In this document: one piece after another, positions 5,954-60,173 of the stretch | How positions within the stretch are numbered: the first letter of the stretch is position 1 | Layout of the letters: each line of letters opens with the position of its first letter | DNA from: an uncultured bacterium | GTDB lineage: Bacteria > DUMJ01 | Length of the DNA: 64,000 bases | Assembly (NCBI GenBank): GCA_937958695.1 | Contig: CALGNK010000027.1 | Coordinates: 44-64,043, forward strand | Reading direction: 5' to 3' | The notes under the pieces: model-generated | What the model saw: only the letters and a program-made list of their open reading frames with translations | What the model was told of the DNA's origin: nothing | Database searches by the model: none | Program-made: the position numbers and the translations under genes

Positions 5954-5955
5954 GG

Positions 5956-7302: not shown

Positions 7303-7306
7303 CTAT

Positions 7307-27041: not shown

Positions 27042-28417
27042 ATCTCGATAAACTCTATTGGCCTAAATGGAGTAAACGCACTCCTTAACAAAGTTTTTAA
27101 ATCCCTATCTATAATTAATGGTAATAAACTTCTACCTCCTTTAGAGAGTGCCATTTCCAAAAGAGATTCCCTAATACTGGCAATAGTAACCTTAATCCTC
27201 TCTCCTCTAAGTATATCTATAACCTGCCTCTTCTGTTCTTCTAACTCTTTTCTAGTAATAGAATTGTATGAGGCAAGTGGGGTAAAAGGTTTTGGAATAA
27301 GGGGTTGAAAATTAAAAGACACATTTGTCTTATAATACTTTAAGAGTTTATCAATTTTTTCTTTAAAATTCTTTAATGAGCTAATCTCTAAGTCGTAGTC
27401 TCCATAACCGAATATCATATAAAACTTTATATTCTTAAATCCAAGTTTAAAGGATGTTTCAAGTACATCTAATAACTTTTCATTACTCTCCCTTTTACCA
27501 ATAGAAAATCTTATATCCTCGTTTATAAATTCTGGGGCTAAGGTTATAGAAGTTTCTCCTGCCAATCTTAAGAGCTCAAGAAACTCTTCGTCCAAGGTTG
27601 ATATTCTTAGGGATGCAACGCTTACCTTCATTCCTTCTTCTATCAACCATCTAAGTAGGTCTTTTATATAAGGAACACCACCTACTAGTGGACCCATAAG
27701 TCCAACCTTTGAATAGATATCCCTATAGCAAGATATAAGTCTCTTTACAACCTCTATAGATTTTATCCTGCAGGGAAGGTATATATTTCCTGCAACACAA
27801 AACTTACAACCCATCGGACAACCTCTCTCTATCTCTATGAGGAACATATCACCAAAAACCGTATCTACAGATCTTACACAACTGTAAGCGGTTTCTCTAT
27901 CAAAATCTTTAAAGACCCTTCTCTTTATCTTCCTAGGCAAACCTTCAACTATGGGTTTTCCGTCAGAGTAGAATCTTGGTATATAAATACCTTCTATGTT
28001 GGCAAAAGATAATAAGAGTTCTTCCCTTGACTTTACCGAGTCTTTAACTTCTATATACCTATTAAGGATCTCTATTATAGCATCTTCTCCTTCTCCTATA
28101 AGAATAAGATCAAAGACATCTGCCAATGGTTCAGGATTATATGTTAGACAGATACCTCCTCCTACTACTAGTGGACAGGAAAGCTCTCTCTCTTTAGCTA
28201 GTATAGGAATAGAAGACCTTTTAAGGATTTCTATTACGTTAAAATAATCTAATTCGTAAGAGAGAGAAACGCCTAAGACATCATATTCATCTATATTCTT
28301 AAGGGATTCTATAGAGACAGGAGGAAGGTCTCCTTGGGGAAGAAATATCCTATGACAGGAGAAATATGGATTTTCATTAATAAGCCTATATAGTAGGTGT
28401 AGGGCAAGACTTGACAT
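27038..28417 (-). CDS. B12-binding-domain radical SAM protein, shorter paralog of the 10972-12684 gene
   Basis: CPMGCKFC cluster motif. Blockwise similarity to the rodA-linked paralog (DVLGVSLSYELDYFNVIEIL / DILAFSISYELNYSNILTIL; SLRISTLDEEF / SLRIDTLSREF). Confidence 0.75.
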   Translation of the reverse strand: MSSLALHLLYRLINENPYFSCHRIFLPQGDLPPVSIESLKNIDEYDVLGVSLSYELDYFNVIEILKRSSIPILAKERELSCPLVVGGGICLTYNPEPLADVFDLILIGEGEDAIIEILNRYIEVKDSVKSREELLLSFANIEGIYIPRFYSDGKPIVEGLPRKIKRRVFKDFDRETAYSCVRSVDTVFGDMFLIEIERGCPMGCKFCVAGNIYLPCRIKSIEVVKRLISCYRDIYSKVGLMGPLVGGVPYIKDLLRWLIEEGMKVSVASLRISTLDEEFLELLRLAGETSITLAPEFINEDIRFSIGKRESNEKLLDVLETSFKLGFKNIKFYMIFGYGDYDLEISSLKNFKEKIDKLLKYYKTNVSFNFQPLIPKPFTPLASYNSITRKELEEQKRQVIDILRGERIKVTIASIRESLLEMALSKGGRSLLPLIIDRDLKTLLRSAFTPFRPIEFIEI

Positions 28418-44481: not shown

Positions 44482-45357
44482 ATGGAAGATTACTTAGTAA
44501 AGGCTGCATCTAATGATTTATCCTTTACAGTAAGTATAGCCATAACTACAGAACTTGTAGAAAAAGCCCGAGAGGTCCATGAGACTAGTAAACTAGCTAC
44601 AGCTGCATTGGGAAGAGCCTTAAGTCTTGTTGGAATAATGGGAACAGAGTTAGAGGGCAAACAAACAGTGAGTCTTCAAATCATATCCAATGGACCACTA
44701 AAGGGGCTATTTGTTCAATCTGACGCAAGTGGAAACGTTAGGGGATATATAAAGAATCCATATATAGAACTGCCACCAAACGAGATAGGTAATATTGACG
44801 TAGAAAGCGGAATAGGGAAATCAGGTTATCTATATATAGTAAAAGATTTAGGATTTGGAAGTCCATACATAGGTATCACTCCTCTTATAAAAGGCGGTAT
44901 AGCAACAGATTTAGCTCATTACTTTTATACATCAGAGCAGACACCTTCAGTAGTAGCAGCTGGAGCCTATATAGGACCTAGCGGCAGGGTTGAAGCTTCA
45001 GGAGGAATGATTGGACGTATACTACCAGGGACAGCAATAGATAAAATAGAATTATTAGAGAAAAGGTTAGAAAAACTTCCTCCGTTAAGCGAACTCATAC
45101 GGGAGTTTGAATCTATAGAATCAATATTGAAGATAATCTTTGAAGATATACCCTATATAATACTGGAGAAGAGAAGTATAAGGTATCACTGTCCCTGTTC
45201 TAGGGAACGAGCTAAGACTACACTAATACTTTTAGGAAAAGATGAACTTTCCTCTATAATAGAAGAAGGCTCTGCAGAGGTAACCTGTGTTTTCTGCGGA
45301 AGAAGATACTATTTTGATAAAGAGGAATTAGAAGAGATATTAGCATCTATCGAGTAA
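44482..45357 (+). CDS. hslO: Redox-regulated chaperone Hsp33
   Basis: C-terminal zinc centre HCPCSRE...CVFCGRRY. 291 aa. Confidence 0.85.
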   Translation: MEDYLVKAASNDLSFTVSIAITTELVEKAREVHETSKLATAALGRALSLVGIMGTELEGKQTVSLQIISNGPLKGLFVQSDASGNVRGYIKNPYIELPPNEIGNIDVESGIGKSGYLYIVKDLGFGSPYIGITPLIKGGIATDLAHYFYTSEQTPSVVAAGAYIGPSGRVEASGGMIGRILPGTAIDKIELLEKRLEKLPPLSELIREFESIESILKIIFEDIPYIILEKRSIRYHCPCSRERAKTTLILLGKDELSSIIEEGSAEVTCVFCGRRYYFDKEELEEILASIE

Positions 45358-48196
45358 CCTTAAGAATTATAGATCTTGAAAAATCATCCCATATTCCTAG
45401 ATTAACTATCTTTCCTGGAGAAAGGAGAGACTGTAGTTTCTTTACCGCAGAATCAATATCATAATGGCTCCATCTTCTAATGTCTATATCCCAGAACTTT
45501 ACAGTATAACCGAGTTTATGAACTATATCTAATAAATCTCTATTAAATTTGTTCTGCGGTGGTCTAAAAAGTTTTATCTCTTCGTTTAATATATCCTCAA
45601 AAACTTTTTCTGCTCTTTTCAGACTAGAAATTATATATTCTCTAGGATAAGTTGTATAGTCTATATAATACTCCCCTAATAGACCTATCTTGTATCCCTT
45701 AGTTATCATCTCTTTCACTACATCCTTATGATAGGCTATGGCTTCTGCAGTAAAGAAGAACGTTCCTTTCAATCCTAACCTATCGAATATCTCTAAAATA
45801 TCCCTAACTTCTTCCTTAGGGTATCTAATCTCGAGGGTATACTCTACATAACTAGAATCTGGATTGGAAAATATAACACTAACACTATTAAATTCCCAAG
45901 GAATCTCGTAAAGATAAGCCTTAAGTCTATAATATTCTATACTACCAATCTTTTTATAATTACTATCTAACCAAGTCTTAATCTTCCCTTTCGGATCTGA
46001 ACTATACTCACCAGCCATTATATACCATACCCTTTTATAAGAATAAGTCGCCCTATATACGTCTACTGGGACATTACCAAAACCATCGATAGTAATATGC
46101 GGTAATTTACCCCTATCATAGTAAATAAATGGTCTATACATCTGAGGCGCAGTTATCAAGACCATATCACCATTTAAAGCGTTAGAATGTATATAATTCA
46201 CTAATTTTCGCCAAGGGCGTGATATAAAATCAAGTCTATTATTATAGTTATAGATACCTAATGCATTTATACACATTATAACGAGTAATATTAGGATAAC
46301 TACTGGGTAAAACTTAAACCTTCTAATTCCCCTCGCTAATAATATAAAATATCCAATAACAAATGGGGAAAGATACCTAGCACTAAAGAAACTCTTATCT
46401 AAAGAAAATAGAATCAATAAGAGAAAAGGCACAAATATATACAGGAAAACCAGGACAAAGCCTCTTTTTTCTTTGTATGGTGGAAATAATCCAAATAAAA
46501 ATATAGCTAAAAATAGAAAGAAGAGATAATCTAGTAAATTACCCTTAGCAAATATACTACGGGCATAACCCAGATTTATCTCTAAAAAGGAGTTTTTTAT
46601 AACTTCTAGAGTAAGGCTCTGTTTTCCTTGATATACCTCTGGAGTTCTGCTTTTCAATATTACATACATCCATGGTAAAAAAGCCATCGCTATAATGAGT
46701 TGATAGATCATCCATCTTTTCAATGTTTCTCTTTCTCTAAATTTGACCCAAAGTATATATAGGTTTTGCAGAAGCACAAGAAATACAGAATAGATATGGG
46801 TGTATAGAGACAGGATATTTATAAAAACTATACCCAAAAGAGTTCTCTTTTCGGATCTACATTCATTAATACTCCATATATAGATTAGATATATTGAGAG
46901 AATAGAAAAAAATGTAAGTAAGGGATACATTCTAGCCTCTTGTGAGTAATAGAATTGGAATGGGGAAAGAGCAAATAAAAGAGAAGAGATTATAGCTGTT
47001 ACCTGGTCAAAAACCTTATTAGCGAAGAGATAGATAAGCGGTATGCTTATTGTACTAAAGATAGCAGAAAAAGACCTTAAAGCTATCTCAGAATCTCCGA
47101 ATAACGATATCCAAAAATGGATAAAGATAAAATACAATGGAGGGTGTATCCCTGTAGAAGCCCTATTTAAAACTATATCCCTTATACTGCTCCAGGCAAG
47201 GTTTACAGTAATAGCCTCATCAAGCCAGAGACTTCTTATACCTATATTATAAAATCTTAAAATTCCACCCAATACTGTTATAAATACTGGAACAAGTTTA
47301 TTGTTTGTTAAATTCTTATTTATTGGGAATAATCCCCACAGAGCAGGTAGAGCGGTATTAATCAAAAATATCAAAAATGCTAAATTAAATGCGACAGTAT
47401 CTGGTATTCCAAATCTACCTAAAAGTAAAATCGAAAATCCCTCCCTTACACCCAACCCTCCAACAGTTATAGGAATAAGGTTAGCTAGCATTACTAGAGG
47501 ATATGCAACAAAGATCCCAAGATTAAATGTGTAACCAAAAGCCCTAAGTAAGAAAAGGGCTTCAAAAAGAACAAGGACATAGCTAGCTAACGTAATGGTT
47601 AAACAGAAGAGGATAATTTTTATACTTAAATTTCTGAGACCTTCTAGGAATTGAGGATATCTTTTGAGTACTGGAAGTCTAAAAAGTATAACTAAGCATT
47701 TTGGTTTGAGGATAAAGAAAAGGAATCCAATAGTTACTAAGGTTATTAATATAAAGATATAAGGACCTAAGAAATACCAAATTCCACCTAAAGAAAGAAA
47801 AACTACTATTAGTAGGTCAAAAATCTTATCCCACAAAACCAAGCCTAAGCCTGCAAGTTTTTTATCATTTGGAATCCCAACTATTCGACCAACTTCTCCT
47901 ATCCTGCCTGGGGTTATTATACCTAAAGACATCCCAGACAGATATCCATCTATAGAGGATAAAAGAGAAACATTTGGGTCTAAATTCTTAATCAAAAGAT
48001 GCCATTTATATATCTTAAGAAGTGTAAATAAAAGGCCAATCAAAAAGGCTATAACAAAGAATAAAAGTCTAATCTTAGCAAAAGAGTTTAAAATGGAATC
48101 TAATGGTACCTTTTTAGAGATAAAATAGATTATATAAATGGTAACTAAGAGTTTAGTTAGATTTAACAGTAAGTTCCTTTTTCCCTTCAGCATCAT
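45347..48196 (-). CDS. Tripartite membrane protein: N-terminal flippase-like (LPG_synthase_TM/UPF0104) domain, GT-C glycosyltransferase (GT39/GT83, PMT/ArnT-like), C-terminal CE4/NodB-like domain with degenerate catalytic motifs
   Basis: Residues 1-300 are multi-TM with GxxGExGR-like motifs (ITPGRIGEVGR; TVGGLGVREG). The middle region has the first-loop acidic motif LWLDEAITV and many TM helices. The C-terminus has RLGLKGTFFFTAE (TFDDG replaced), LFRPPQNKF (RPPxG-like) and GYTVKFWDIDIRRW (DxxDW-like). Confidence 0.65.
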   Translation of the reverse strand: MMLKGKRNLLLNLTKLLVTIYIIYFISKKVPLDSILNSFAKIRLLFFVIAFLIGLLFTLLKIYKWHLLIKNLDPNVSLLSSIDGYLSGMSLGIITPGRIGEVGRIVGIPNDKKLAGLGLVLWDKIFDLLIVVFLSLGGIWYFLGPYIFILITLVTIGFLFFILKPKCLVILFRLPVLKRYPQFLEGLRNLSIKIILFCLTITLASYVLVLFEALFLLRAFGYTFNLGIFVAYPLVMLANLIPITVGGLGVREGFSILLLGRFGIPDTVAFNLAFLIFLINTALPALWGLFPINKNLTNNKLVPVFITVLGGILRFYNIGIRSLWLDEAITVNLAWSSIRDIVLNRASTGIHPPLYFIFIHFWISLFGDSEIALRSFSAIFSTISIPLIYLFANKVFDQVTAIISSLLFALSPFQFYYSQEARMYPLLTFFSILSIYLIYIWSINECRSEKRTLLGIVFINILSLYTHIYSVFLVLLQNLYILWVKFRERETLKRWMIYQLIIAMAFLPWMYVILKSRTPEVYQGKQSLTLEVIKNSFLEINLGYARSIFAKGNLLDYLFFLFLAIFLFGLFPPYKEKRGFVLVFLYIFVPFLLLILFSLDKSFFSARYLSPFVIGYFILLARGIRRFKFYPVVILILLVIMCINALGIYNYNNRLDFISRPWRKLVNYIHSNALNGDMVLITAPQMYRPFIYYDRGKLPHITIDGFGNVPVDVYRATYSYKRVWYIMAGEYSSDPKGKIKTWLDSNYKKIGSIEYYRLKAYLYEIPWEFNSVSVIFSNPDSSYVEYTLEIRYPKEEVRDILEIFDRLGLKGTFFFTAEAIAYHKDVVKEMITKGYKIGLLGEYYIDYTTYPREYIISSLKRAEKVFEDILNEEIKLFRPPQNKFNRDLLDIVHKLGYTVKFWDIDIRRWSHYDIDSAVKKLQSLLSPGKIVNLGIWDDFSRSIILKVTR

Positions 48197-49778
48197 ATCT
48201 TCTTATTATTTTTATCTCATTTTTCATTGGCTCTACTACATCAATAAATGTAGATAGGTCTTGTATCTGGAAATACCTAGAAGATGGGATATAGATATAT
48301 GGATTTTCAATTCCAACGATAAGCCTTTCTATATCCTCAGGAGAATTAACAGTATCTTCTATTGTAATACAGGTATCAGATATCTCTATATTTCTATTTA
48401 CCTGAATATCACTCCTAGATTTATATGTTATAAGCATCCTTCTAAGTAAGTTCTTTATCTTAAGGCTCAGAGATGTAAATCTTCCTAGTGTAAACTGGAA
48501 TAATCGAGAAAGTATAAATTCTTTAGATCCCATAGTCTTGTAAGATAGCTTTAACATATTGGTTTTAACTGATATTTTCCCTTCTCTTATGTTGAAGGTC
48601 TCTTCCTGCCTAAGCCATCCGCTAGAATAGAGATTATCTCCAATCTTTACAATAACTCCACTATCATTGATAGAAAGGCCACTTTTCCTAATAGTTAATC
48701 TAAATACTCCACCCTTTTTCAGGTTAGAGACAAAGTAGAAACTCTTATTACTTATGATAAGTAGCCCTGAATTCCTAAAGAATTTGTTAAACTCGCTTTC
48801 ATACAGAGGGGGTAATAGATTCCCATCATATATATCCATATGTGCCTGTAAGTACGTATATCCTATATAAGAGAGATACCTATCATCTAAATTATACGGA
48901 CCTATTGTCCCTCTTTTCTCTAAAGAATTCCTTAGTACAAAAGCTATTCTCCTTGCATTTTCGTTCCAATGGCTCGAATACTCTATCCCAGATGGTATTA
49001 TATATTTGGTATTTCTAGATCCATACTCTCCACCAAAGGTTCCATCTGGATGGATAAAATAGGCAAGAAATTCTAGCGCTTTATCTATCATATCCCTAGC
49101 TAATAAATCTTTTGATTTATAATGATACTTACAGAGATAATCTATAGCTAGAGATAGATATCCTATATCTGGTCCTCCATACTCAGGAAACCATCCTTCG
49201 CTATTTTGTCTCTCTCTTAATTGTTTTAACTTCCCAATAGCTCCATCCTCATACTTCTTCTCACCAGTAATAAGGTAAACATTATATAGCGCAGAAACAG
49301 AACCTGCCACTTGGTTACAGGCAGTAAAATCTGTATATGACAGTAACCAGTCGGAAGCCTTCTTAAGACCTATTACAACTTCATTATAAGAAGGAACTTC
49401 TCTACCAAGTATCAATAGTGCCTCTGAAACCGCATAAGTGGTAAAGGCAGTAGCAACAAAACTATGCTCATTTGGATACCATTCATTAAAAGAACCATCT
49501 TTATTCTGTATCTTGAGCCAGAATCTTAGTGCTCCATCTATCCAGCTAAAGATACTCTCTCTTTTATAATAGATATTGTTAGGGAAATCATATTCATAGA
49601 GTAAAACTAAAGTAAGAACAGCCTCTTGAAACCTAGAACAGGAAAAATCTACCACATTATAGTGCCAAAACTGCCTATCAAAAGAACCAAATGTTGGACT
49701 ATTGGGATTTTTGTCTAGTAAACCTAGTAACCTCGGTATCTCTTTTAGAATAACATCTAAATATACACTACTCTTCAA
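48153..49778 (-). CDS. Hypothetical cytoplasmic protein, possibly an (alpha/alpha)-toroid plus beta-sandwich (heparinase II/III-like) fold. Function unknown.
   Basis: 541 aa with no signal peptide. Helix-rich N-terminal half (NEWYPNEHSFVATAFTTYAV; GWFPEYGGPDIGYLSLAIDYL) and a beta-rich C-terminal half. Overlaps both flanking genes. Confidence 0.35.
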   Translation of the reverse strand: MKSSVYLDVILKEIPRLLGLLDKNPNSPTFGSFDRQFWHYNVVDFSCSRFQEAVLTLVLLYEYDFPNNIYYKRESIFSWIDGALRFWLKIQNKDGSFNEWYPNEHSFVATAFTTYAVSEALLILGREVPSYNEVVIGLKKASDWLLSYTDFTACNQVAGSVSALYNVYLITGEKKYEDGAIGKLKQLRERQNSEGWFPEYGGPDIGYLSLAIDYLCKYHYKSKDLLARDMIDKALEFLAYFIHPDGTFGGEYGSRNTKYIIPSGIEYSSHWNENARRIAFVLRNSLEKRGTIGPYNLDDRYLSYIGYTYLQAHMDIYDGNLLPPLYESEFNKFFRNSGLLIISNKSFYFVSNLKKGGVFRLTIRKSGLSINDSGVIVKIGDNLYSSGWLRQEETFNIREGKISVKTNMLKLSYKTMGSKEFILSRLFQFTLGRFTSLSLKIKNLLRRMLITYKSRSDIQVNRNIEISDTCITIEDTVNSPEDIERLIVGIENPYIYIPSSRYFQIQDLSTFIDVVEPMKNEIKIIRRYDAEGKKELTVKSN

Positions 49779-50715
49779 TTCCCACTTCTTCCACTATGTA
49801 GTATTCTTCCTTTTGTCCATGAGTTAGATTATTGATCATCTCTCCTAGCAATCCTATAGAAAGAGTTTGAATTCCTAATATCATGCATAGAACACCAAGA
49901 GTAAGAAGAGGCCTATTACCTATGAGGGCACCAGTCAAAAATTTATAGAATACTAGATATAAATTTATAATAAAACCAACAATAAACAATAAAACTCCAG
50001 CTGAACCAAATACATGCATAGGCCTCTTTATAAACCTTGTAAGGAATACAACAGTAAAAAGGTCTAAAAAACCTTTAAAGAGTCTCTCCCAGCCATACTT
50101 AGAGGTCCCAAATCTTCTAGGATGATGTGTTACAACAAGTTCTCCTACTGTAAACCCTTTGCTATAGGCTAAAGCAGGTATATAACGGTGAAGTTCACCG
50201 TAAATATCTAGAGATTTCACAACTTCATTTCTATATGCTTTAAAACCACAATTAAAATCATGAATCTTTACTCCGGTAATCCAAGATGTAAGTTTATTAA
50301 AGAATCTAGAAGGTAAAGTTTTACTCGGGGGATCATGACGTATCTTCTTCCATCCAGAAACTACATCATAACCCTTATTAATCATCTCTATAAATCTAGG
50401 TATCTCTGTAGGATCATCCTGTAGGTCTGCATCCATAGTGATGACTATACTACCCTTAGCCAACTTAAAACCAGCAGAAAGTGCGCTAGACTTACCAAAG
50501 TTTCTCCTAAATCTTACCCCCTTTACTCTACCATCTTCCTTACCCAATCTTTTTATCAACTCAAAAGATCCATCAGTACTGCCATCATCTATAAAAATTA
50601 TCTCAAAAGATAATCCTAGAGGAGAAGTATTCTCTACTATTCCTTTATATAGCGACTCAATAGTCTCTACTTCATTTTTTAGGGGAATCACAAAAGACAC
50701 ATCATACTTATTCAT
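49768..50715 (-). CDS. GT2 polyprenyl-phosphate glycosyltransferase (Dpm1/ArnC/GtrB/CsbB-like) with C-terminal TM helices
   Basis: VIPLKNE...IFIDDGSTDGS...TMDADLQDDP (DXD) motifs. Two C-terminal TM segments are typical of ArnC/GtrB. Confidence 0.8.
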   Translation of the reverse strand: MNKYDVSFVIPLKNEVETIESLYKGIVENTSPLGLSFEIIFIDDGSTDGSFELIKRLGKEDGRVKGVRFRRNFGKSSALSAGFKLAKGSIVITMDADLQDDPTEIPRFIEMINKGYDVVSGWKKIRHDPPSKTLPSRFFNKLTSWITGVKIHDFNCGFKAYRNEVVKSLDIYGELHRYIPALAYSKGFTVGELVVTHHPRRFGTSKYGWERLFKGFLDLFTVVFLTRFIKRPMHVFGSAGVLLFIVGFIINLYLVFYKFLTGALIGNRPLLTLGVLCMILGIQTLSIGLLGEMINNLTHGQKEEYYIVEEVGIEE

Positions 50716-51967
50716 TATTAAAACCTCCTAGGAAAAGAAGTACTGCTCCCTGCCCATGTAGAAAAGACCCTAATCTTCTCTTTGCATAATAAATATAATC
50801 CCCAGGACCTGTCCCTTCAGATACACCTAATACGTCTCCCTCTTGGCTAATTCTAGTCTTTATTCCTTTAATAGCCTTACTTACCACATCCATATAACTT
50901 TCACCTACTATTCCTAGTTTGATAGCCCTATATATCCCGTATCCCAAAAGGGCACTACCAGATGTTTCTAAATAAGTGTCTTTCATATTTATAAGTGTAC
51001 GCCACAAACCCGATTTATCTTGAAACTTACTTAAGATACCAATAATATTCTTTACAATAGATCCTATATAATCTTTATCTTCCTCTTCTATATAAGGAAA
51101 TATTTCTACTAATGTAGCCAACATCCATCCATTCCCTCTTGCCCAATAATGCTGTGTTAATGAGAGCGTATTCTCATCCCAGGCATGGTAAAAGAGGGAT
51201 ACATTTGGATTCATTAGGTATTTTATATGGATATATAATTGTCTCAAACCTTCCTCCCTATAGGGCCCCCCCAACCTAACCATAAATGGACATATCATAT
51301 AAACTGTATCAATCCATAGTTGTCTAGTCCCCGACTCGTGCACAATACCACCAGAGGGGAGTCTATCTTTATAGGATAGTATAAAATCACCAAGTTCTTT
51401 AGCCCTTTCTAGATACTTTTCTTCTTTAAACATATCATAAAGGGTCAAAAGGACATCACCTATAGCACATTCATTTACATTCTTTGGCTTTATACCTCTC
51501 TCTATATACCTATCTACCAAAGCCTTTACATATCCCCAATTGCCAGTAGCAAGTAGTCCCTTCATTGCCACAGTCTGTCCCCAAGAATAACCTACAACCC
51601 CGTTTTTTATAGTTCTTTTTGCTATTAGCCTGGTTAGCTCAAGATTATCTAGGGCTAAATTTTTATTCGTTACTCTTAAAAGAGGATAAGAATTATATTT
51701 ATTTTCTATTGCCTGCATTATACGAATAGCCCTATCTATATAGATCTCTGCATTACTAATTCTTCCAGTTTTAAATTCATTCTTAGCTCTAATTATAAGA
51801 TTCTCTACCTCTGTCAAGTCCCAGCCCTTTGACCACTCTACCCTCATATTATGGAATTTGGTTTCTGCATAGGAAAGTTTTTCTAAAAAGTTTCCCGCAT
51901 TAAGGTATCTACAAATCCAGAACATTAATATAGAAATCTGTATAAAAACTATTATCACCTTTTTCAT
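50708..51967 (-). CDS. Glycoside hydrolase family 88/105-like (unsaturated glycuronyl hydrolase fold) with N-terminal membrane anchor
   Basis: QLWIDTVYM, HAWDE, WARGNGWMLATLVE and LETSGSALLGYG match the Glyco_hydro_88 (YteR/UGL) signature regions. N-terminal hydrophobic segment. Confidence 0.65.
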   Translation of the reverse strand: MKKVIIVFIQISILMFWICRYLNAGNFLEKLSYAETKFHNMRVEWSKGWDLTEVENLIIRAKNEFKTGRISNAEIYIDRAIRIMQAIENKYNSYPLLRVTNKNLALDNLELTRLIAKRTIKNGVVGYSWGQTVAMKGLLATGNWGYVKALVDRYIERGIKPKNVNECAIGDVLLTLYDMFKEEKYLERAKELGDFILSYKDRLPSGGIVHESGTRQLWIDTVYMICPFMVRLGGPYREEGLRQLYIHIKYLMNPNVSLFYHAWDENTLSLTQHYWARGNGWMLATLVEIFPYIEEEDKDYIGSIVKNIIGILSKFQDKSGLWRTLINMKDTYLETSGSALLGYGIYRAIKLGIVGESYMDVVSKAIKGIKTRISQEGDVLGVSEGTGPGDYIYYAKRRLGSFLHGQGAVLLFLGGFNNE

Positions 51968-52932
51968 TTTTGTCTATCTAGATGTTCCTCATAAGTTCTA
52001 GAAAATATATGAATTCCATCTCCTTTAGTAAAATAAAAAAGGTAATCTGTATTGGAAGGATTCACCGCTGATACTATAGAGGAAAGCCCTGGATTACATA
52101 TAGGTCCTGGAGGAAGACCGTAATGTAGGTAAGTATTATAAGGTGAATCAACCTTAAGATCTTCATAGCTTAAAACAGGTTTAGGCTTATCTAAAGCATA
52201 CTGGACTGTAGCATCACACTGGAGCTTCATCCCAATCTTAAGTCTTTTCAGCAAAACCTGAGCTATTATAGGCCTTTCGCTATCTATCTTGGCTTCCTTT
52301 TCTATAAGAGAGGCAAGAATTACAGCCTCTTTAGGTGTAAGACCTAGATGCTTAGCTTTTTCCTCAAAATCGCTAGGCAGAATCTCTATAAACCTATCTA
52401 AAAATCTCTTTATTACTAACTCAGGTGGACTGTTTAGAAAGAACTCATAAGTATCTGGGAATAAAAAACCTTCGTAAGGTGGTTGTATAAAATAGGGATA
52501 ATTACCCTTAATAGTTCTATTTAAAGCGCTCAAAAACTCTTCCTTGGAAACAATCCCATAGCTAGAAAGTCTTTCTGCTATCTCCCTAGAGTTAAACCCC
52601 TCAGGAATAGTTACCCAAACAGTCTTTGGTTTAGCTTCAAAGATAAATTCAAGCAGTTTATCCAATCTGAGTCCTCTGGGGATATCAAATGTACCGGGGA
52701 TAAATCTCTTTCCATCATCCCCCTTTAATTTAAGTATATAGAGAAATGTCGTTACAGAGGATATAAGTCCCTTCTCTTTTAAAAGAATAGAAATATCTCT
52801 AGCATTCATACCAGGCTTTATAGTTACTGTTTCGGTACCTCTATATGGTAAAGGGGGATATATAAAGAAAGAAGACAAAAAGACTCCTATAAATACAGTT
52901 AATAGAGCTAAACCTAAAACCTTATTCATCAC
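51964..52932 (-). CDS. mltG: Endolytic murein transglycosylase MltG (YceG)
   Basis: N-terminal TM and YceG-like domain with the ...[12 protein letters not shown]... signature. Confidence 0.85.
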
Positions 52933-54015
52933 CCATTTATCTTAAGCACAACACTTTTAAGATAAGAAGAGATAAAAGTATCTATCTCTCCATCCAATAC
53001 CGCCTGAATATTGCCAACCTCTACCCCGGTTCTATGGTCTTTGACTAAGGTATAGGGATGCAAGATATAGGACCTTATCTGGTTACCCCAAGCAATATCT
53101 CTTCTCTCCCCTTTAATAGCCTGCAACTCTTTTTCCCTCTTCTCTTTCTCTAATGCAAAGAGACGTGCTTTAAGGATTCTCATTGCAGTTTCCCTGTTCT
53201 GATGCTGAGATCTCTCACTTTGACATTCAACAACAATTCCAGTTGGTATATGAGTAATCCTAACTGCAGACTCTGTCTTATTTACATACTGACCACCAGG
53301 TCCGCTAGCCCTGAACGTATCTATCTTTAAATCTTCAGGTCTTATATCTACATCTACTTCATCACCTATATCTGGAATAACATCTACTAAAGCAAAGGAT
53401 GTATGTCTCCTGTGAGCAGCATCAAAGGGAGATATCCTAACCAATCTATGTACACCTCTTTCTGCCTTCAATAAGCCATATGCAAAGTCTCCCTTGACTA
53501 TAAAGGTAGCGCTCTTTATACCTGCCTCTTCTCCAAAAGAGGTATCTACTATTTCTAATTTAAACCCATTTCTCTCTGCCCATCTTGTATACATTCTTAA
53601 GAGCATCTCAGCCCAATCCTGAGCATCAACTCCTCCTGCTCCAGCATGAATAGTAACAACAGCGTTATAACTATCATACTCATCTGTAAAAAGAGCCTGA
53701 AGTTCTAGTTCCTCCAAGAGTCTTCTAGCAGTCTCTAATTCCTGTTTCAACTCCTCTTCTAATGTCTCATCCTCTCCCAATAATTCAGAAAATTCCTTTA
53801 AAGACTCTAATATTCCGGAGAGCTTCTTACCTTTTTCAACAAGTTTTCTCAGTTTATTCAGTTCAGACAAAATCTTCTGGGCTTCTTGAGGATTATTCCA
53901 GAAATCTTCTCTTTGTGTTTCCTCTTCCATAGTAGATACTTTAATACTCTGCTTGTCAAAGATAATCACCCAATTCTAGAAATCTCTTTTCTAATTCAGC
54001 TATTTCTCTCTTCAT
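52929..54015 (-). CDS. prfB: Peptide chain release factor 2, translated via programmed +1 frameshift
   Basis: ORF0 runs [19 protein letters not shown] then TGA. The +1 frame continues DKQSIKV...SPF...GGQ. The ATG at 54015 overlaps the secA stop (TAATG). Confidence 0.9.
53955..53961 (-). other. prfB: RF2 autoregulatory +1 frameshift site CTT TGA C
   Basis: The reverse complement of 53955-53961 is CTTTGAC. GGGTG, an SD-like element, lies 9-13 nt upstream. Confidence 0.85.
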
Positions 54016-56507
54016 TACTCATCCCTTCCACAACAATATTTGTACTTCTTACCACTACCGCAAGGACAAGGGTCATTTCTACCTATCTTCTTTGTCTTTA
54101 TAGGCTTCTTTATATTGTCCCTAGAAGTCTGAGATATAACTGCTATAGGCTTATTCTCTATTCTTTCTGGCCTGAGTTCTAATCTCATAAGAAATCTAGA
54201 AATATCTCTCCTTATACTAGAGAGCATATCTTGGAATATCTCATAAGCCTCTTTCTTATACTCTATCAGAGGCTCCCTCTGACCATAAGCCCTTAACCCT
54301 ATCCCTTCTTTTAAGAAATCCATATTCTCTAAATGTTCTATCCAATGGGTATCGACTACCCTAAGCATAATAAATTTTTCCGCCTGTCTCAGTAAGTCAG
54401 ACCCTATCTCTCTTTCTTTTTCTTCATACTTAGCATTTATCTTATTTCTAATTAGAGAAATTATCTCATTGTAAGATAATTCCTCTACAGATTTTATATC
54501 CACATCTATATTAAATGTACTCCTTACTTCACTAACAAATCCTTCTAGATCCCACACATCTTTTTTATCTTTTGGTATATAGGTCTCTGCTATCTCTAGT
54601 AGATAGTCATTCATTATCGAAATAACAGATTCTTTTAAATTATCATTAATAAGTATTTTCTTTCGCTCTTGATATATTACCCTACGCTGGGTTTCCATCA
54701 CATCATCGTATTCCAAAAGATGCTTCCTTATATCAAAGTGATAAGATTCTACCTTTTTCTGTGCACTTTCTATAGCTTTAGAGATGATAGGGTGTTCTAT
54801 AGGCTGGTCTTCATCAACACCTAGTTTATCCATAACGCCTCTTATTCTTTCGGAGCCAAACAGTCTCATTAGCTCATCCTCTAAAGAAACATAGAATCTA
54901 GAGGAACCTGGATCCCCCTGTCTTCCAGATCTACCTCGAAGTTGATTATCTATCCTTCTAGACTCATGCCTCTCTGTTCCTATAACATGTAACCCACCAA
55001 GATCTGCAACCCCTTCCCCAAGAACTATATCAACACCTCTACCTGCCATATTTGTAGCTATAGTAACACTACCTTTTTGTCCTGCTTTAGCTATGATCTC
55101 CGCCTCTTTTTCGTGGTATTTAGCATTTAAGACCTGATGAGGTATTCCCAATCTCTTAAGCATAGAACTAAGAAGCTCAGACTTCTCTATAGAACGTGTC
55201 CCTACTAGCACAGGTCTTCCTACCTTATATAAGTCAGCTATCTCATTCACTATAGCCTTAAACTTAGCCTTCTCTGTCTTATATACAGCATCTGGATAGT
55301 CTATACGTATCATTGGCTTATGAGTAGGTATTACTACAACTTCTAATCCGTATATCTTTAGAAACTCATCTGCCTCTGTAGCTGCAGTTCCAGTCATACC
55401 TGCTAACTTTTTATACATCCTAAAGTAATTCTGTAATGTTATAGTCGCTAAGGTCTGCGCTTCCTGTCTTATCTTCAGACCTTCCTTGGCTTCTATTGCT
55501 TGATGAATACCGTCGCTGTACCTCCTACCATACATAAGCCTACCAGTAAATTCATCTACTATAATAACTTCCCCATCTTTAACTATGTAATCAACATCCT
55601 TTTTGAAAAGTTCCTTAGCTTTAAGTGCTGCTACAAGGTAGGAAAGATAATCTATATCATTAACAGCATATATATTCTCTATACCCAAGATCTTCTCTAC
55701 CTTCCTAGCGCCTGAATCAGTTAGACTAACACTTTTAAGCTTTTCATCAACCGTATAATCAACATCCCTTATCAGATTTCTAGCAATATGGGCAAACTGA
55801 TAGTATAAACGGGTAGGTTTTTCTGCCACACCAGAAATGATAAGAGGAGTTCTAGCCTCATCTATAAGAATACTATCAACCTCGTCTACTATAGCATAGT
55901 TAAACTCCCTCTGAACCAGTTCATCTGCACTTAAAGCCATATTATCTCTAAGATAATCAAATCCAAACTCGGTATTAGTCCCATAAGTAATATCTGCACT
56001 ATAAGCTACTTTCCTCTCGCTGGGGGTAGAATCGTGTTGTAAGAGTCCAACAGTAAGGCCAAGGGATTCATATATAGGTCCCATCCAATATCTGTCTCTC
56101 TTAGCCAGATAATCATTTACAGTAACTATATGAACCCCTTCCCCTGTTAGTGCATTTAGATATGCAGGCATAGTAGCAACGAGGGTCTTACCTTCTCCAG
56201 TTTTCATCTCAGCTATCTTCCCTTCATGAAGTACAATAGCACCTATCAGTTGGACATCGAAAGGTCTCATATTAACCTTCCTTTTAGCAACCTCTCTAAC
56301 CACTGCAAATGCTGGGATCATTATTTCATCTAAAGTAGCTCCTTGTTTCAACTTTTCTTTAAATTCTAAGGTCTTCTTTGCCAAATCTTCATCGGAAAGC
56401 TTAGGAACCTCCGGTTCAAGTCTATTTATTTCTTCTACTATACGCCAATATCTTCTTAATTCCCTGTCGGAGCTCTTTCCTATAATCTTCTCTAAAATTT
56501 TAAACAT
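54015..56507 (-). CDS. secA: Preprotein translocase ATPase SecA
   Basis: [16 protein letters not shown] Walker A, DEAD-like [11 protein letters not shown], and C-terminal SEC-C zinc motif [13 protein letters not shown]. 830 aa. Confidence 0.95.
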
Positions 56508-56522
56508 GATTAACTTTTCTCC

Positions 56523-59500
56523 TTAAAATCCTATGACTACCTTTTCTCTATCTTTAGATACTATGCTCTCTATAAAAGATTTATATGAAGGGTATTCATC
56601 TGGTGTAATAAGTATACTTCTAATTTGAAAGACTCTTTCTACCTTTAGAGTATTCCCACTAGCATAAAACTTCATACTATAGTATGCAAAAGGTTTATCC
56701 AATACTAAATCTTCAGGTAGATGTACAATCTTGGAACCTTCTGGAAGTTTGTATGTAACTATGTCTTTAGTAGTATAGGGAGACCAATAATTGATTGGAT
56801 ATTTCCTCTCCTTCTTCGCTACAGATTCGCTTGTTTCTATCCTCTCCATAATTGACGGCAAGAATGAGATCGTGTCTCTGACTACCTGTGCATAGCCTGG
56901 AGCATTAAATGAGTATTTTTCCCAAACATCTACGCCCAAATCCCTAAGGTTAGAAAGCTCATAACCCTCAAGAGTCGCATTGGGGACAAGTGACCTCAAT
57001 GACCACTCTAAGTCCTCTCTTATCTCTCTATCAGAAGCATTCTTCCATACACTTCTAATATATGTATCATAGTATCCCTTAAATGTAACATGTGCTATGC
57101 CTTTGATACTTCCATCTTTAGAGAGGGTAATTTCTATATTCCTAGTCTTTTCATTATCTTCAGGTTTGTCTATAGGTATATCTACAAGTACTGGTTTCCC
57201 TTCATCTATTAATAAAGCCTTAGTCCCCTGATTCATAGATGGGATATAGCCAAAACGAGTATCCTCAGCAGTTCCATCAAGGAAATAGAGCTTGCCGTTA
57301 AGTCTTATTGCACATATTGCATGGTCAAATTGAAATCCTGGAGAATCTAAGGGCAAAGCACCTCTATACCTAGTTCTTACTAAAACATAGTAAGCAGGAA
57401 TACCTAACTCCCTATACATCGAAATTAATAATGTTGCCTTATCTTTACAGTCTCCATACTTATACTTAAATACCTCGCTAGCCTGATGTGGCATAAGTCC
57501 TCTTATTCCATACTCTAAACCAACATATCTGATATTATTTGCTACAAAATAGTATATTGCCTTGGCTTTATCCTCAAGCGTCTCTTTATCCTTAGTAAGC
57601 TCAACCACTTTAGCCTTTATAGCCTCATCAGGTTTTGTCCTAGGATTAGCTATATCGTAATACCAACCGGCAACCTCTTGCCAATCATTAAAAGTAGTTA
57701 TCTCTAATCTGGGAACGACATCAGCTAAAGGAGGCATATAGCTCTCTTGAATAATCTGTGGTGTATTATTCATCTCCCATGTGTATACTATAGTATTACC
57801 TCTCTCCTCAATCTTAGGTTCTAGTTCTCCGTTATACATCTTGTAGTAGAACTTTGTCCCCTTAGGAACTACTAAAGTATATCTAGAGATCAACATTGGA
57901 TCAAAATCTTGGAAGAGGAATTCATCCTGGAAATGTTTCCCAAGTGGACCTCTACCAAGGTCATCTATAGTATAGGCATATTCTATAATTGCATTATTCT
58001 CAAGTGAGGGCATAGATATAACTTTAGCCATAGCATCCGAATATAGATGATAACCTTCAGCCAAGGAAACATCATGTATGGCTGTAGCTTCTACTTCTGT
58101 CCCATCGGGCTTTATTGTCCTAGCCTTTAATATCTTTACCCTCTCACCATAGAGGCTATATGGTATATAGACCTCTCCGTAGATCTCTCTTCCTCTCTCA
58201 TTTAGTATTTTAATTACTTTATGATAGGTTAAAGACGAGGTTCCATCTGGTTTTATAATCCTTTCTGCACTATCAAGAATTATTATAGCCGATGCATCTG
58301 GATAGTCCTTCTGAGTAGGAGTGTCTTTGATAAGTCTAGACACATCAGCAAGTGTATAGCTTTCTTCTTTAAGAAAACTTAGATAATCTTTAAGATATAT
58401 ATTGCCTGGCTCTATCTCCAAAGTCTTCTCCCAATATAAGAAAGCCTTTTCCCTTTGCCCTAATTCATAATAAAGGTTTCCAAGATACTCATATATATCA
58501 GGATGATAAGGAGATATATCGCTGATACTCTCCAATAGTGTAATAGCTTCACTAAACATCTTAGATCTCATATAGAGGTCTACAAGGTCTAAATAGAGAT
58601 TGATATTATAAGGTTCCCTTTCTAACCTCTCCCTTATCATCATAATGGCTTCTTTATAGTTACCAGTACTTCTATATATAGAGATTAAATTCCTAGAGGC
58701 ACTATAAAATGCATTATTTATATCTAGTAGTTTCTTATACACAGAAATTGCATCACTATACCATCCCCTTCTCTCGTATATAAGCCCAAGGACATAGTAA
58801 CTTAGAGGATGTAAAGGATTTATCTTTAGTGACTCAGCGATAGTACTCTCCGCATCTTTAATCCATCCTCTCATAAGATAAGTCCAAGACAGATATGCAT
58901 AGAGCTGAGAATAATTCTTGCCATATTTTAACCCTTCCTGAAATAGCTGAATAGCCTCCTCATACAATTTTTTGTCATATCTATTCCAACCAAGATCCAC
59001 ATACGCTCTAACAAACTCTGGTATAGATACGATGACCTTTCTTAATTCATTAATACCCTCGTCACTTTTGCCTTCATCTAGATAGGTCAAACCAAGAAAA
59101 TAACGAGGGAGAATAGTATCTGAAATCTCTAAAGCCTTAAGAAAACTCTTCTCTGCCCTATCCCAAAGTCCCCTCTTCCTATAGATTATACCTGAATGGA
59201 TTAATGACCAATAATCCTGTGGTATAGTATCTTCTACAAGTACAAATTCAGCCCCTTTCTTAATCTTCTTTGGTTCTAGAGAATATTTTAGATTAGGGAT
59301 AGGACTTCCATCCTTATCGGTAATCCTAAGGACAAATTGCCAAAGTCCATTATCTTCACAGACCTTTACCAGAAGCTTATTCCAACCTTTATTTAATTTA
59401 ACTTTAACTACATCTTGGTCTATGTATATATTTCTATATATATCTTGAGATAAGACCTTAGTATCATTTAGCCAGATACTTAAAGCGCCTGTACTGCCAG

Positions 59501-60173
59501 ACTTAATAAATACCTCTTTATCTGAATCGCTATAGATAAAAGTAAGGGCATAAGCGGTCACTGCATTTGAAGGATAAAGCAAATTCCCAAGCTTCATAAT
59601 CCCAAAGGTAGTCTTACTAGGAAACCATCTTACTTCCATCCCATTCTTGCCAGTATAAATTTTATTAAGGTCTATCTCCTCTTCCGGAGGAAATACCTTA
59701 TAGAATCCAGAACCACCCACATTGTCAAATGGTCCTATTATAAGCCAATCATTAATTAATCCTAATTCGGATATATACTCTTTTGTAGAATTATAATTAC
59801 CAAGACTCATCAAAAACTGTATCTTCTCCCAGTAAAGAGAAGATAATAGTTCAGTACTCTTTGTCCTGCTAATTAATTTGTCTATAAAAGCGAGCGAGGA
59901 CTTATACAATCCTTCTTCATCATACAGCTCACTTAAAAGATACCAATAACTTAAAGAGGAATAATCATTAGGACTCTCCAATAATACCCTTTCCCAGCTC
60001 TCTATAGCCTTTGCATTATCACCCCTTATCCAGGAGTTCCACCCCTCTAATTCTAGAGGATTACTAAGTTCTAGAGCAAACTTTGATCTTGTCTCCTGAG
60101 TAAAAGATATAGAGGGAAGGATAAAAAGAAATATTATCAATAAAGCTAAAATTTTATTCTTCAAACTATACAT
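56523..60173 (-). CDS. Large secreted TPR-repeat protein with transglutaminase-like cysteine protease core and DUF3857-like domain
   Basis: Signal peptide, multiple TPR-like repeats in residues about 300-600, and YGDCKDKATLLISMYRELGIPAYYVLV (TGase-like Cys core). 1216 aa. Confidence 0.65.
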   Translation of the reverse strand: MYSLKNKILALLIIFLFILPSISFTQETRSKFALELSNPLELEGWNSWIRGDNAKAIESWERVLLESPNDYSSLSYWYLLSELYDEEGLYKSSLAFIDKLISRTKSTELLSSLYWEKIQFLMSLGNYNSTKEYISELGLINDWLIIGPFDNVGGSGFYKVFPPEEEIDLNKIYTGKNGMEVRWFPSKTTFGIMKLGNLLYPSNAVTAYALTFIYSDSDKEVFIKSGSTGALSIWLNDTKVLSQDIYRNIYIDQDVVKVKLNKGWNKLLVKVCEDNGLWQFVLRITDKDGSPIPNLKYSLEPKKIKKGAEFVLVEDTIPQDYWSLIHSGIIYRKRGLWDRAEKSFLKALEISDTILPRYFLGLTYLDEGKSDEGINELRKVIVSIPEFVRAYVDLGWNRYDKKLYEEAIQLFQEGLKYGKNYSQLYAYLSWTYLMRGWIKDAESTIAESLKINPLHPLSYYVLGLIYERRGWYSDAISVYKKLLDINNAFYSASRNLISIYRSTGNYKEAIMMIRERLEREPYNINLYLDLVDLYMRSKMFSEAITLLESISDISPYHPDIYEYLGNLYYELGQREKAFLYWEKTLEIEPGNIYLKDYLSFLKEESYTLADVSRLIKDTPTQKDYPDASAIIILDSAERIIKPDGTSSLTYHKVIKILNERGREIYGEVYIPYSLYGERVKILKARTIKPDGTEVEATAIHDVSLAEGYHLYSDAMAKVISMPSLENNAIIEYAYTIDDLGRGPLGKHFQDEFLFQDFDPMLISRYTLVVPKGTKFYYKMYNGELEPKIEERGNTIVYTWEMNNTPQIIQESYMPPLADVVPRLEITTFNDWQEVAGWYYDIANPRTKPDEAIKAKVVELTKDKETLEDKAKAIYYFVANNIRYVGLEYGIRGLMPHQASEVFKYKYGDCKDKATLLISMYRELGIPAYYVLVRTRYRGALPLDSPGFQFDHAICAIRLNGKLYFLDGTAEDTRFGYIPSMNQGTKALLIDEGKPVLVDIPIDKPEDNEKTRNIEITLSKDGSIKGIAHVTFKGYYDTYIRSVWKNASDREIREDLEWSLRSLVPNATLEGYELSNLRDLGVDVWEKYSFNAPGYAQVVRDTISFLPSIMERIETSESVAKKERKYPINYWSPYTTKDIVTYKLPEGSKIVHLPEDLVLDKPFAYYSMKFYASGNTLKVERVFQIRSILITPDEYPSYKSFIESIVSKDREKVVIGF

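Follow-up and report, generated by a model that had tools for sequence, protein, structure and literature searches.

Sugars delivered to the cell envelope on polyprenyl phosphate govern resistance to antibiotics, recognition by the immune system, and the receptors used by phages. This decoration is established as a three-component process in systems such as ArnC-ArnE/F-ArnT, GtrA/GtrB/GtrV, and CsbB/GtcA/YfhO. A stretch of 64,000 nucleotides from an uncultured bacterium of the GTDB lineage DUMJ01 (contig CALGNK010000027.1), referred to here as the window, raises the question of what a module of this kind, encoded by four overlapping genes directly behind secA, prfB, and mltG, does with an additional protein of 541 residues, UNK541. 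Beyond the three components of the known systems, the locus indicates a fourth, cytoplasmic one that is widely conserved, from Planctomycetes to DPANN archaea. On balance, we lean towards the view that the genes encode a four-step extracytoplasmic glycosylation via a polyprenyl-phosphate sugar, similar to the Arn, Rgt, and Gtr pathways, in which UNK541 edits a uronate; the locus is a variant on known pathway logic, not a new principle. The module consists of the following genes and domains (TM, transmembrane; AF2, AlphaFold2; GT2 and GT-C, glycosyltransferases of family 2 and of the C type).

50708-51967, minus strand: GH105/GH88-type hydrolase, 419 aa
49768-50715, minus strand: GT2 of the ArnC/GtrB/DPMS type, 315 aa
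48153-49778, minus strand: UNK541, 541 aa, TTG start
45347-48196, minus strand: fusion protein, 949 aa, with four domains:
47312-48196, minus strand: MprF-type flippase-like domain (LPG_synthase_TM/UPF0104), residues 1-295
46232-47311, minus strand: GT-C (PMT_2/ArnT-like), residues ~296-655
45872-46231, minus strand: alpha/beta domain behind the last TM helix, presumably extracytoplasmic, residues ~656-775, from AF2 secondary structure
45347-45871, minus strand: CE4 (NodB-fold) domain with degenerate motifs, putative pseudo-deacetylase, residues ~776-949

The original prediction for this DNA had described four overlapping genes between mltG and the end of the operon, and open reading frames (ORFs) occupy exactly those positions on the minus strand. 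Its domain assignments for all four agree with Pfam matches, structure alignments, and hydropathy, and its logic of extracytoplasmic glycosylation by GT2, flippase, and GT-C is supported, at the level of protein families, by these assignments. The embedding behind secA-prfB-mltG that it proposed likewise holds as a physical placement, in a gap-free string of seven genes.

Glycosyltransferase, flippase fusion, and hydrolase

By family, the GT2 is assigned to the polyprenyl-phosphate glycosyltransferases. It matches PF00535 (Glycos_transf_2) at 6.2e-31, carries a DxD motif ('MDADLQDD', aligned with 'LDADLQNP' in ArnC), and has two C-terminal TM helices predicted from hydropathy (residues 238-256 and 264-282). 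Residues 6-309 align to residues 10-311 of ArnC at ~1e-45 (structures 9hwj/9bhc/8vxh), both TM helices included, the matches to GtrB sll0501 (6e-33) and to archaeal dolichyl-phosphate mannose synthase (DPMS; 1e-19) being weaker. The sugar is not defined by this homology, because the score against the NCBIfam ArnC equivalog NF007986, 186.3 bits, falls far below its cutoff of 529.

The fusion protein, whose AF2 model has a pLDDT of 86, shows ~17 hydrophobic segments followed by a soluble tail of 300 residues. The N-terminal flippase domain matches PF03706 over profile positions 2-302 (6.2e-32; 111.7 bits versus a cutoff of 33.4) and reaches 36.4 against TIGR00374, under the cutoff of 43.2. Lipid translocation by an MprF-type domain has been demonstrated only for MprF, with aminoacyl-phosphatidylglycerol, glycolipids being predicted substrates (PMC5898192; bioRxiv 10.1101/2022.03.11.483950). 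The GT-C part that follows matches PF13231 (PMT_2; 6.2e-14, 52.9 bits versus a cutoff of 26.1) and bears a W-L-D-E motif in its first outward loop, with W324, D326, and E327 invariant in 24/24 homologues; its Foldseek matches are ArnT (5ezm/5f15; E 1e-5, TM-score TMt 0.55-0.56), ALG9, STT3/AglB, and Pmt4. Among the 120 best matches, the flippase-GT-C fusion is limited to this lineage and Dictyoglomota. Such a fusion amounts to Rosetta-stone evidence that the MprF-type flippase family moves polyprenyl-phosphate sugars, an activity that has so far only been predicted.

Behind the last TM helix, the alpha/beta domain is shared with the 760-aa two-domain homologues of Dictyoglomus. Basic residues cluster in alternate loops (444-455, 475-495, 573-580, and 622-629), and by the positive-inside rule and the AF2 helix map the C-terminal 300 residues of the fusion probably lie outside the membrane. 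These end in the CE4 domain (PF01522, Polysacc_deac_1; 1.5e-17, 64 bits), which adopts a NodB fold with a Foldseek TMt of 0.74 to both 4m1b and 2cc0. The canonical CE4 motifs, which we take to be TFDD, H[ST]xxH, and LxH, would furnish an Asp-His-His metal triad, a catalytic Asp, and a catalytic His. Measured against this canon, T[LV]EI (here T-L-E-I) stands in place of TFDD, L-G-E-Y-Y in place of H-S-x-x-H, and N-L-G in place of L-x-H; the substitutions are the same in 12/12 three-domain homologues, and the metal triad and the catalytic His are lost. Since these residues are gone, the domain is, judged by its motifs, not a working deacetylase. Its best sequence and structure matches are BA0150 (4m1b; 9e-21, 31% identity) and BA3943 (7bkf/6hm9) of Bacillus anthracis, the latter carrying the PDB title 'CE4 family pseudoenzyme'. 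These two proteins and the PdaB family resemble it in keeping the NodB fold after losing metal-binding and catalytic residues, but they are free-standing Firmicutes proteins, whereas the CE4 domain here forms one protein with a GT-C, attached at its outer end. It would be best understood as a glycan-binding appendage of the GT-C, and a dead CE4 domain on a glycosyltransferase suggests a mode of acceptor recognition.

A role for the CE4 domain as an ArnD-like deformylase was considered and rejected, given the missing catalytic residues and the position outside the membrane. The deacetylase-like addition that the original prediction had seen in it accordingly falls away: lacking the metal triad and catalytic His, extracytoplasmic in its predicted topology, and similar to known CE4 pseudoenzymes, the domain offers no analogue of ArnD.

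The first gene of the module encodes what its family and N-terminus identify as an exported hydrolase, probably of the unsaturated uronyl type. It matches PF07470 (Glyco_hydro_88) at 3.6e-60 (204 bits), and its best solved relatives are the GH105 proteins 3qwt/3pmm (~1e-34) and YteR (7e-28). The motifs W-x-D and HAWDE are retained, as 'WIDTVYM' and 'YHAWDE' aligned with 'WLDGLYM' and 'YHAWDE' of YteR; the Asp of the aligned motif is presumably the catalytic residue. Export is proposed because the protein, with a single N-terminal hydrophobic segment (residues 4-22, signal or anchor), and its orthologues (5/5) all have signal-like N-termini. The protein also carries an additional domain of ~90 aa.

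UNK541 and the spread of its family

No partner of the GT2 is more conserved than UNK541, which the original prediction passed over, and no part of the locus is more informative. No Pfam or NCBIfam family passes its threshold, even with E allowed up to 10, the UNK541 profile finds PDB sequences at a best E of only 0.079, and hydropathy describes a soluble protein with no convincing TM helix or signal. The AF2 model (pLDDT 88.6, pTM 0.91) contains an (alpha/alpha) toroid at residues ~1-315 followed by a beta-sandwich of ~210 aa at residues ~330-541. The 33 best Foldseek matches (~18 distinct entries) are all uronate lyases of families PL8, PL12, PL15, PL17, PL33, and PL35 or dermatan-sulfate epimerase 1 (DS-epi1), at 9-13% identity and with no curated family threshold reached; the toroid alone is closest to 2-epimerases of the AGE family. 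On the strength of the model, the family is predicted to have the fold of uronate lyases and C5-epimerases. Sequence profiles offer faint echoes of this: Pec_lyase matches 22/38 family members weakly or below threshold (best 3.6e-7), Lyase_8_N, DUF4962, and C5-epim_C each give weak matches to single members, and precomputed matches of PF25840 (Ulvan_lyase_N) to UNK541 homologues are weak or faint, and unmarked in one. Two further ideas about the protein were set aside. Kinship with GH105 as a paralogue was rejected at an hhalign profile-profile probability of 1.5%, and an amphipathic membrane anchor formed by the basic hairpin at residues 418-449 is not used as evidence, its hydrophobic moment being modest (0.23, 0.53).

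The family has ~60 invariant residues, and because these are mostly polar or aromatic, they argue for an enzyme rather than a scaffold; as judged from their conservation, H39, Y40, N155, Q156, Y200, Y207, Y214, R255, and N256 are candidates for catalysis. It comprises 2,379 clusters at 50% identity for E<=1e-3 and 1,112 for E<=1e-30, nearly all members being stand-alone proteins of 500-600 aa. No description of the family was found in the literature on MprF, flippases, GT-C, and GT2 or on prokaryotic dermatan-sulfate epimerases.

Genome loci encoding the family, 41 in total, were compared; they stem from Dictyoglomota-like bacteria, Nitrospirota, Clostridia, Cyanobacteriota, Gammaproteobacteria, Omnitrophota, Planctomycetota, Woese-, Nano-, and Altiarchaeota, and other archaea, and neighbourhoods were counted on the 33 distant loci with at least 50% UNK541 coverage. 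An ArnC-like GT2 gene lies <=250 bp from the UNK541 homologue in 18/33 (16 upstream on the same strand, two downstream), and a GT2 gene lies <=2 kb away in 24/33. An MprF-like flippase gene is found <=700 bp away in 10/33 and a PMT_2 GT-C gene <=3 kb away in 8/33. In a Pfam census of up to four genes per side, GT2, PMT_2, and LPG_synthase_TM occur 30, 18, and nine times, respectively. In Dictyoglomus thermophilum, the order is GT2, UNK541 homologue, flippase/GT-C (760 aa, without CE4), and a gene for Ugd, the UDP-sugar 6-dehydrogenase; the context is unrelated, with neither secA nor mltG, and there as well as in one Dictyoglomota-like contig the first three genes overlap as they do in the window.

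The core module is thus ancient and portable; what this lineage has added is the placement behind secA-mltG, the GH105 gene, and the pseudo-CE4 domain. Of the lineage-specific envelope feature that had been proposed, the placement remains and the module does not, its core recurring in Dictyoglomus, Planctomycetes, Omnitrophota, and DPANN archaea. The synteny expected in relatives is found in five contigs of metagenome-assembled genomes (MAGs), which keep the order; D. thermophilum, with the core in another context, departs from it, which partly bears out what the original prediction had named as a refutation, namely related genomes that place these genes in unrelated contexts.

Other lineages surround the GT2-UNK541 pair with other genes. 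In Clostridia, Cyanobacteriota, and Gammaproteobacteria (L015, L016, L019, L021, and L022), an AsnB-like amidotransferase comes first, then the GT2 and then the UNK541 homologue, and in many cases a B12-binding radical SAM enzyme comes next; this is a different tailoring set around the same pair. In DPANN archaea and Nitrospirota (L004, L005-L014), a nitroreductase-family gene stands between the GT2 gene and the UNK541 homologue or just behind the latter; it is sometimes fused to a methyltransferase, and one locus has an FrhB-like F420 protein instead. The UNK541 homologue of Nitrospirota is preceded by a TM-anchored Exo_endo_phos protein, and the GT2 is more than 3 kb away. These neighbours suggest that the same intermediate undergoes redox tailoring that differs by lineage.

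Proposed route and competing explanations

The order of the genes parallels that of the reactions proposed here. At the inner face of the membrane, the ArnC-type GT2 would put the sugar of a nucleotide donor, probably a UDP-uronic acid, on undecaprenyl phosphate. UNK541 would then modify the lipid-linked uronate at the cytoplasmic face before export, as its fold, gene order, and context suggest. Its likeliest chemistry would be removal of the proton at C5, the reaction known from uronate lyases and dermatan-sulfate epimerase, and on a monosaccharide that lacks a leaving group at C4 the outcome would be C5 epimerisation, for example of glucuronic acid (GlcA) to iduronic acid (IdoA). The flippase domain of the fusion would move the lipid-sugar to the outer face, as expected from its family and from an earlier archaeal prediction, and the fused GT-C would hand the sugar to an envelope acceptor, with the dead CE4 domain perhaps binding that acceptor, an N-acetylated glycan in peptidoglycan or in the core or lipid A of lipopolysaccharide (LPS). 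The exported GH105 protein, as a lineage-specific addition, probably acts outside the membrane, where it would trim the uronate decoration or take it off, and the position behind secA-prfB-mltG would make expression constitutive in this lineage.

A bolder and distinctly more doubtful proposal is that the UNK541 family constitutes an unrecognised class of enzymes that edit a uronic acid on polyprenyl phosphate, by C5 epimerisation or 4,5-elimination, before export by an MprF-type flippase. If true, a four-component pathway of GT2, toroid enzyme, MprF-type flippase, and GT-C would be common to Bacteria and Archaea, and the exported GH105 protein could be the matching 'eraser', in a topology that reverses the classical catabolic pair of lyase and unsaturated-uronyl hydrolase. 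Editing of the sugar on its carrier by UNK541 would add a new example to a process known from DprE1/E2 and ArnD, and could account for the entry of rare uronic acids, among them IdoA, guluronic acid (GulA), and altruronic acid (AltA), into prokaryotic envelopes. Dictyoglomus thermophilum is culturable and carries the core module, which makes the hypothesis directly testable there.

The Arn pathway of Gram-negative bacteria, made up of Ugd, ArnA, ArnB, ArnC, ArnD, ArnE/F, and ArnT, offers the most detailed comparison. As in that pathway, an ArnC-type GT2 would load a sugar derived from UDP-GlcA onto undecaprenyl phosphate, the lipid-linked sugar would be modified before flipping, and a GT-C of predicted ArnT fold would transfer it outside the membrane; moreover, the modules of relatives adjoin Ugd, in one case also a DegT/ArnB-type aminotransferase. 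In contrast to the Arn pathway, flipping would fall to an MprF-type domain within the same protein as the GT-C and not to the small ArnE/F pair, the step on the lipid-sugar is assigned to a protein of toroid and beta-sandwich where Arn uses a CE4 deformylase, and the CE4 domain is degenerate and predicted to lie outside the membrane. ArnA is absent, and the GT2 lies far under the ArnC equivalog cutoff (186 versus 529 bits).

In Rhizobium, RgtE and RgtA-D transfer galacturonic acid (GalA) from dodecaprenyl-P-GalA. The Gtr, CsbB, and Rgt systems share with the locus a GT2 that makes a polyprenyl-phosphate monosaccharide, export by a flippase, and decoration of an envelope polymer by a GT-C-type enzyme, the sugar of Rgt being itself a uronic acid (GalA). 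Unlike the locus, they have flippases of the GtrA/GtcA family and no fourth cytoplasmic component; the locus adds a protein of lyase/epimerase fold, the flippase-GT-C fusion, and the pseudo-CE4 appendage.

Makarova et al. 2015 described an archaeal neighbourhood of an AglD-like GT2, a UPF0104/arCOG00899 flippase, and a PMT/STT3-like arCOG00563 protein, which were predicted to flip and transfer a lipid-linked sugar (PMC5898192). The three protein families are the same as here, and the flippase domain of AglD is also fused to a partner enzyme, but the prediction concerns archaea only and the fusion partner is a GT2. The UNK541 family is not mentioned in that paper (PMC5898192), from whose text heparinase, lyase, epimerase, and toroid are absent. 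Passages of the PplT preprint (bioRxiv 10.1101/2022.03.11.483950) list, as fusion partners of the flippase domain, glycosyltransferases of family A and family B and an O-antigen ligase domain; a PMT_2/ArnT-type GT-C is not mentioned as a partner in these passages.

For UNK541 itself, the closest functional precedent may be, in part, AglQ of Haloferax volcanii and Agl32 (VNG1058H) of Halobacterium salinarum, soluble (alpha/alpha)6 proteins that act on uronic acids in archaeal N-glycan assembly, Agl32 being a demonstrated GlcA C5-epimerase that yields IdoA (PMC3827465, PMC12624080, PMC13308652). Like UNK541, they are toroid proteins encoded in gene clusters for lipid-linked glycans, and they share with its toroid the structural neighbours cellobiose 2-epimerase (5zig), AGE (1fp3), UGL, YteR, and YihS. 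The two-domain architecture predicted for UNK541 is that of the lyases of toroid and beta-sandwich (PL8/12/15/17/33/35) and of human DS-epi1; the substrates of those enzymes are polymers located outside the cytoplasm or in the Golgi, whereas UNK541 is predicted to be cytoplasmic and is paired with a lipid-carrier GT2.

As to the sugar, several lines of sequence and model evidence point to a uronic acid or a derivative of one: Ugd in relatives, AsnB neighbours, the GH105 gene, and the UNK541 fold. A Ugd gene stands directly behind the fusion gene in D. thermophilum and in L044, a 55%-identical relative with the full secA context, as well as beside the module in the Dictyoglomota-like contig L045, and further Ugd genes occur <=10 kb away in Omnitrophota and Nitrospirota loci. 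AsnB-type amidotransferases flank the GT2-UNK541 pair in loci of Clostridia, Cyanobacteria, and Gammaproteobacteria, and amidotransferases of this kind amidate uronic acids. Of the two decorations first suggested, a uronic acid or an amino sugar, the former is therefore strengthened by Ugd in relatives, GH105, and the UNK541 fold, and the latter, with its implied deacetylation, finds no support in the CE4 domain.

Several observations weigh against a uronate-editing pathway of this kind. No Ugd gene lies within the 64-kb window, so the uronic-acid donor is extrapolated from relatives. In Nitrospirota, the UNK541 homologue is not beside a GT2, its neighbours being Exo_endo_phos and nitroreductase genes. 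Agl32 differs from UNK541 in being a single-domain protein of 372 aa without a beta-sandwich and in requiring flanking GlcA residues in an oligosaccharide. Scans for consensus promoters and terminators returned no more sites than in shuffled sequence and are uninformative, so co-transcription is read from the gene overlaps only. A frameshift and partial deletion in one relative (L026, below) speak against essentiality of the module unless they reflect an assembly error.

Two classes of acceptor are favoured by different evidence: peptidoglycan or a wall polymer by the mltG/dcw context and the PdaB/BA0150-like pseudo-CE4 domain, and LPS core or lipid A by the similarity to ArnC and ArnT and by the LPS-core genes of L045. 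Divergent beside the module in that contig (L045:1-5088) are genes for Ugd, a DegT/ArnB-type aminotransferase, GmhA/GmhB-like and HldE-like heptose proteins, and a fused Wzy_C and heptosyltransferase (GT9), which implies that this Dictyoglomota-like lineage has an LPS-like glycolipid. It is possible, if doubtful, that the same pathway logic serves lipid A or LPS core specifically, in an Rgt- or ArnC/ArnT-like manner, replacing or masking phosphates in the outer membrane of a thermophile. ArnC as the best match of the GT2, the ArnT-like fold of the GT-C, and the sugar and heptose genes adjoining the L045 module would fit such a target; a scan of ORFs covering part of the window found no lpx, kds, or waa genes, the operon partner is mltG and the neighbouring cluster dcw, and the pseudo-CE4 domain is nearest to peptidoglycan-related proteins of the PdaB/BA0150 type.

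The link to secA would find a simple explanation if the locus performed protein O-glycosylation of the PMT/GT39 type, with the GT2 making polyprenyl-phosphate mannose or hexose, the GT-C modifying Ser/Thr of S-layer or secreted proteins, and UNK541 acting as a neutral-sugar 2-epimerase or isomerase of the AGE type. Besides secA in the operon, this draws on the PMT_2 and TMEM260-like Pfam matches, an NCBIfam mannosyltransferase match, the naming of homologues as 'glycosyltransferase family 39' in the source annotation, the nearness of the UNK541 toroid to AGE-family 2-epimerases, and a ManC gene elsewhere in the window. We regard it as unlikely, as the GT2 is much nearer to ArnC than to DPMS, the modules of relatives are flanked by Ugd and not by GDP-mannose genes, full-length UNK541 resembles uronate lyases and DS-epi1 and not single-domain AGE enzymes, and the CE4-fold appendage suggests that the acceptor is a glycan and not a protein.

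Still less probable is that UNK541 is a polyprenyl- or terpenoid-binding toroid of the terpene-cyclase/prenyltransferase type, passing the lipid carrier or lipid-sugar from GT2 to flippase, or a structural adaptor. Weak squalene cyclase matches (TIGR01787 0.004, SQHop_cyclase_C 0.057), repeats resembling Q-x-x-D-G-x-[FW], and the conserved basic helical hairpin inserted in the beta-sandwich at residues 418-449, which could touch the membrane, hint in this direction, whereas the abundance of invariant charged and polar residues is what a carbohydrate active site typically shows and no DxDD-type cyclase motif was seen in the sequence. Finally, polysaccharide lyases and GH88/GH105 enzymes normally act in tandem and both fold types occur in this one operon, yet a catabolic pair of GH105 and UNK541 for uronic-acid polysaccharides (pectin or glycosaminoglycan-like), with GT2 and GT-C as unrelated neighbours, is highly improbable, given the reversed topology (hydrolase exported, lyase-fold protein without signal peptide), the linkage of UNK541 to GT2 in distant bacteria and archaea without GH105, an operon without transporters, sugar-acid isomerases, or kinases, and the overlapping, translationally coupled genes.

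Putative transcription unit and genomic setting

Upstream of the module, the string of genes begins with secA, and downstream it ends at hslO.

54015-56507, minus strand: secA, 830-aa ORF, first gene of the gap-free string, with SecA Pfam families on the contig
52929-54015, minus strand: prfB (RF2), PCRF and RF-1 domains, +1 programmed frameshift, ATG at 54015
51964-52932, minus strand: mltG (YceG), endolytic peptidoglycan transglycosylase, PF02618 8.6e-82, TIGR00247 216 bits versus a cutoff of 103
44482-45357, plus strand: hslO (Hsp33), convergent, marks the operon end, PF01430 1.5e-80

The seven genes secA-prfB-mltG-GH105-GT2-UNK541-fusion form one string without an intergenic gap. The apparent gap of 45 nt between secA and prfB disappears because prfB starts upstream of its +1 frameshift, which is canonical (CTT TGA at 53961-53956) and can be read straight from the sequence; with this taken into account, the ATG and the secA stop share 1 nt (TAATG). 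The frameshift itself is ordinary, 19 sense codons (ATG included) being followed by CTT TGA and the +1 frame into a 346-aa ORF (window 53956-54015, minus strand). Further along, prfB and mltG overlap by 4 nt, mltG and the GH105 gene by 4 nt, GH105 and GT2 by 8 nt, GT2 and UNK541 by 11 nt, and UNK541 and the fusion gene by 44 nt, and the 3' end of the fusion gene converges on hslO with an overlap of 11 nt. The SecA protein is 83-93% identical in related MAGs, and that of mltG has a single N-terminal TM helix by hydropathy (residues 6-24). The seven-gene order is kept in five related MAG contigs of uncultured bacteria (L001, L002, L003, L026, and L044) at 54-92% protein identity, and because of this conservation the four genes of the module can be taken as real. 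The surroundings are housekeeping DNA for envelope and division, with the dcw cluster mraZ-murG adjoining and ftsZ, mreB, PBP2, and rodA further off.

In the low-coverage MAG contig L026 (9065-11240), the module looks decayed: the GT2 gene is frameshifted, and a deletion of ~3 kb brings residue 121 of UNK541 together with residue ~181 of the GT-C part of the fusion. Either the gene loss is real, with the module being dispensable, or the assembly is at fault.

Directly upstream of secA lies a gene for a 1216-aa protein with TPR, DUF3857, transglutaminase-core, and DUF3858 domains (window 56523-60173, minus strand). Its orthologue in the Dictyoglomota-like contig (35% identity, L045:11277-14969) is convergent and stands right behind the flippase/GT-C gene, so the tie between this protein and the module survives rearrangement. 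A small, separate sugar cluster ~40 kb away (window 3757-9069, plus strand) encodes a GT4, a 354-aa protein without a Pfam match, ManC (GDP-mannose pyrophosphorylase/isomerase), NAD synthase, and a YdjC-like carbohydrate deacetylase. Among the rodA/PBP2/mreB and ftsZ genes lie two that encode radical SAM proteins whose N-terminal domain is Radical_SAM_N2 (window 10972-12684 and 27038-28417, minus strand).

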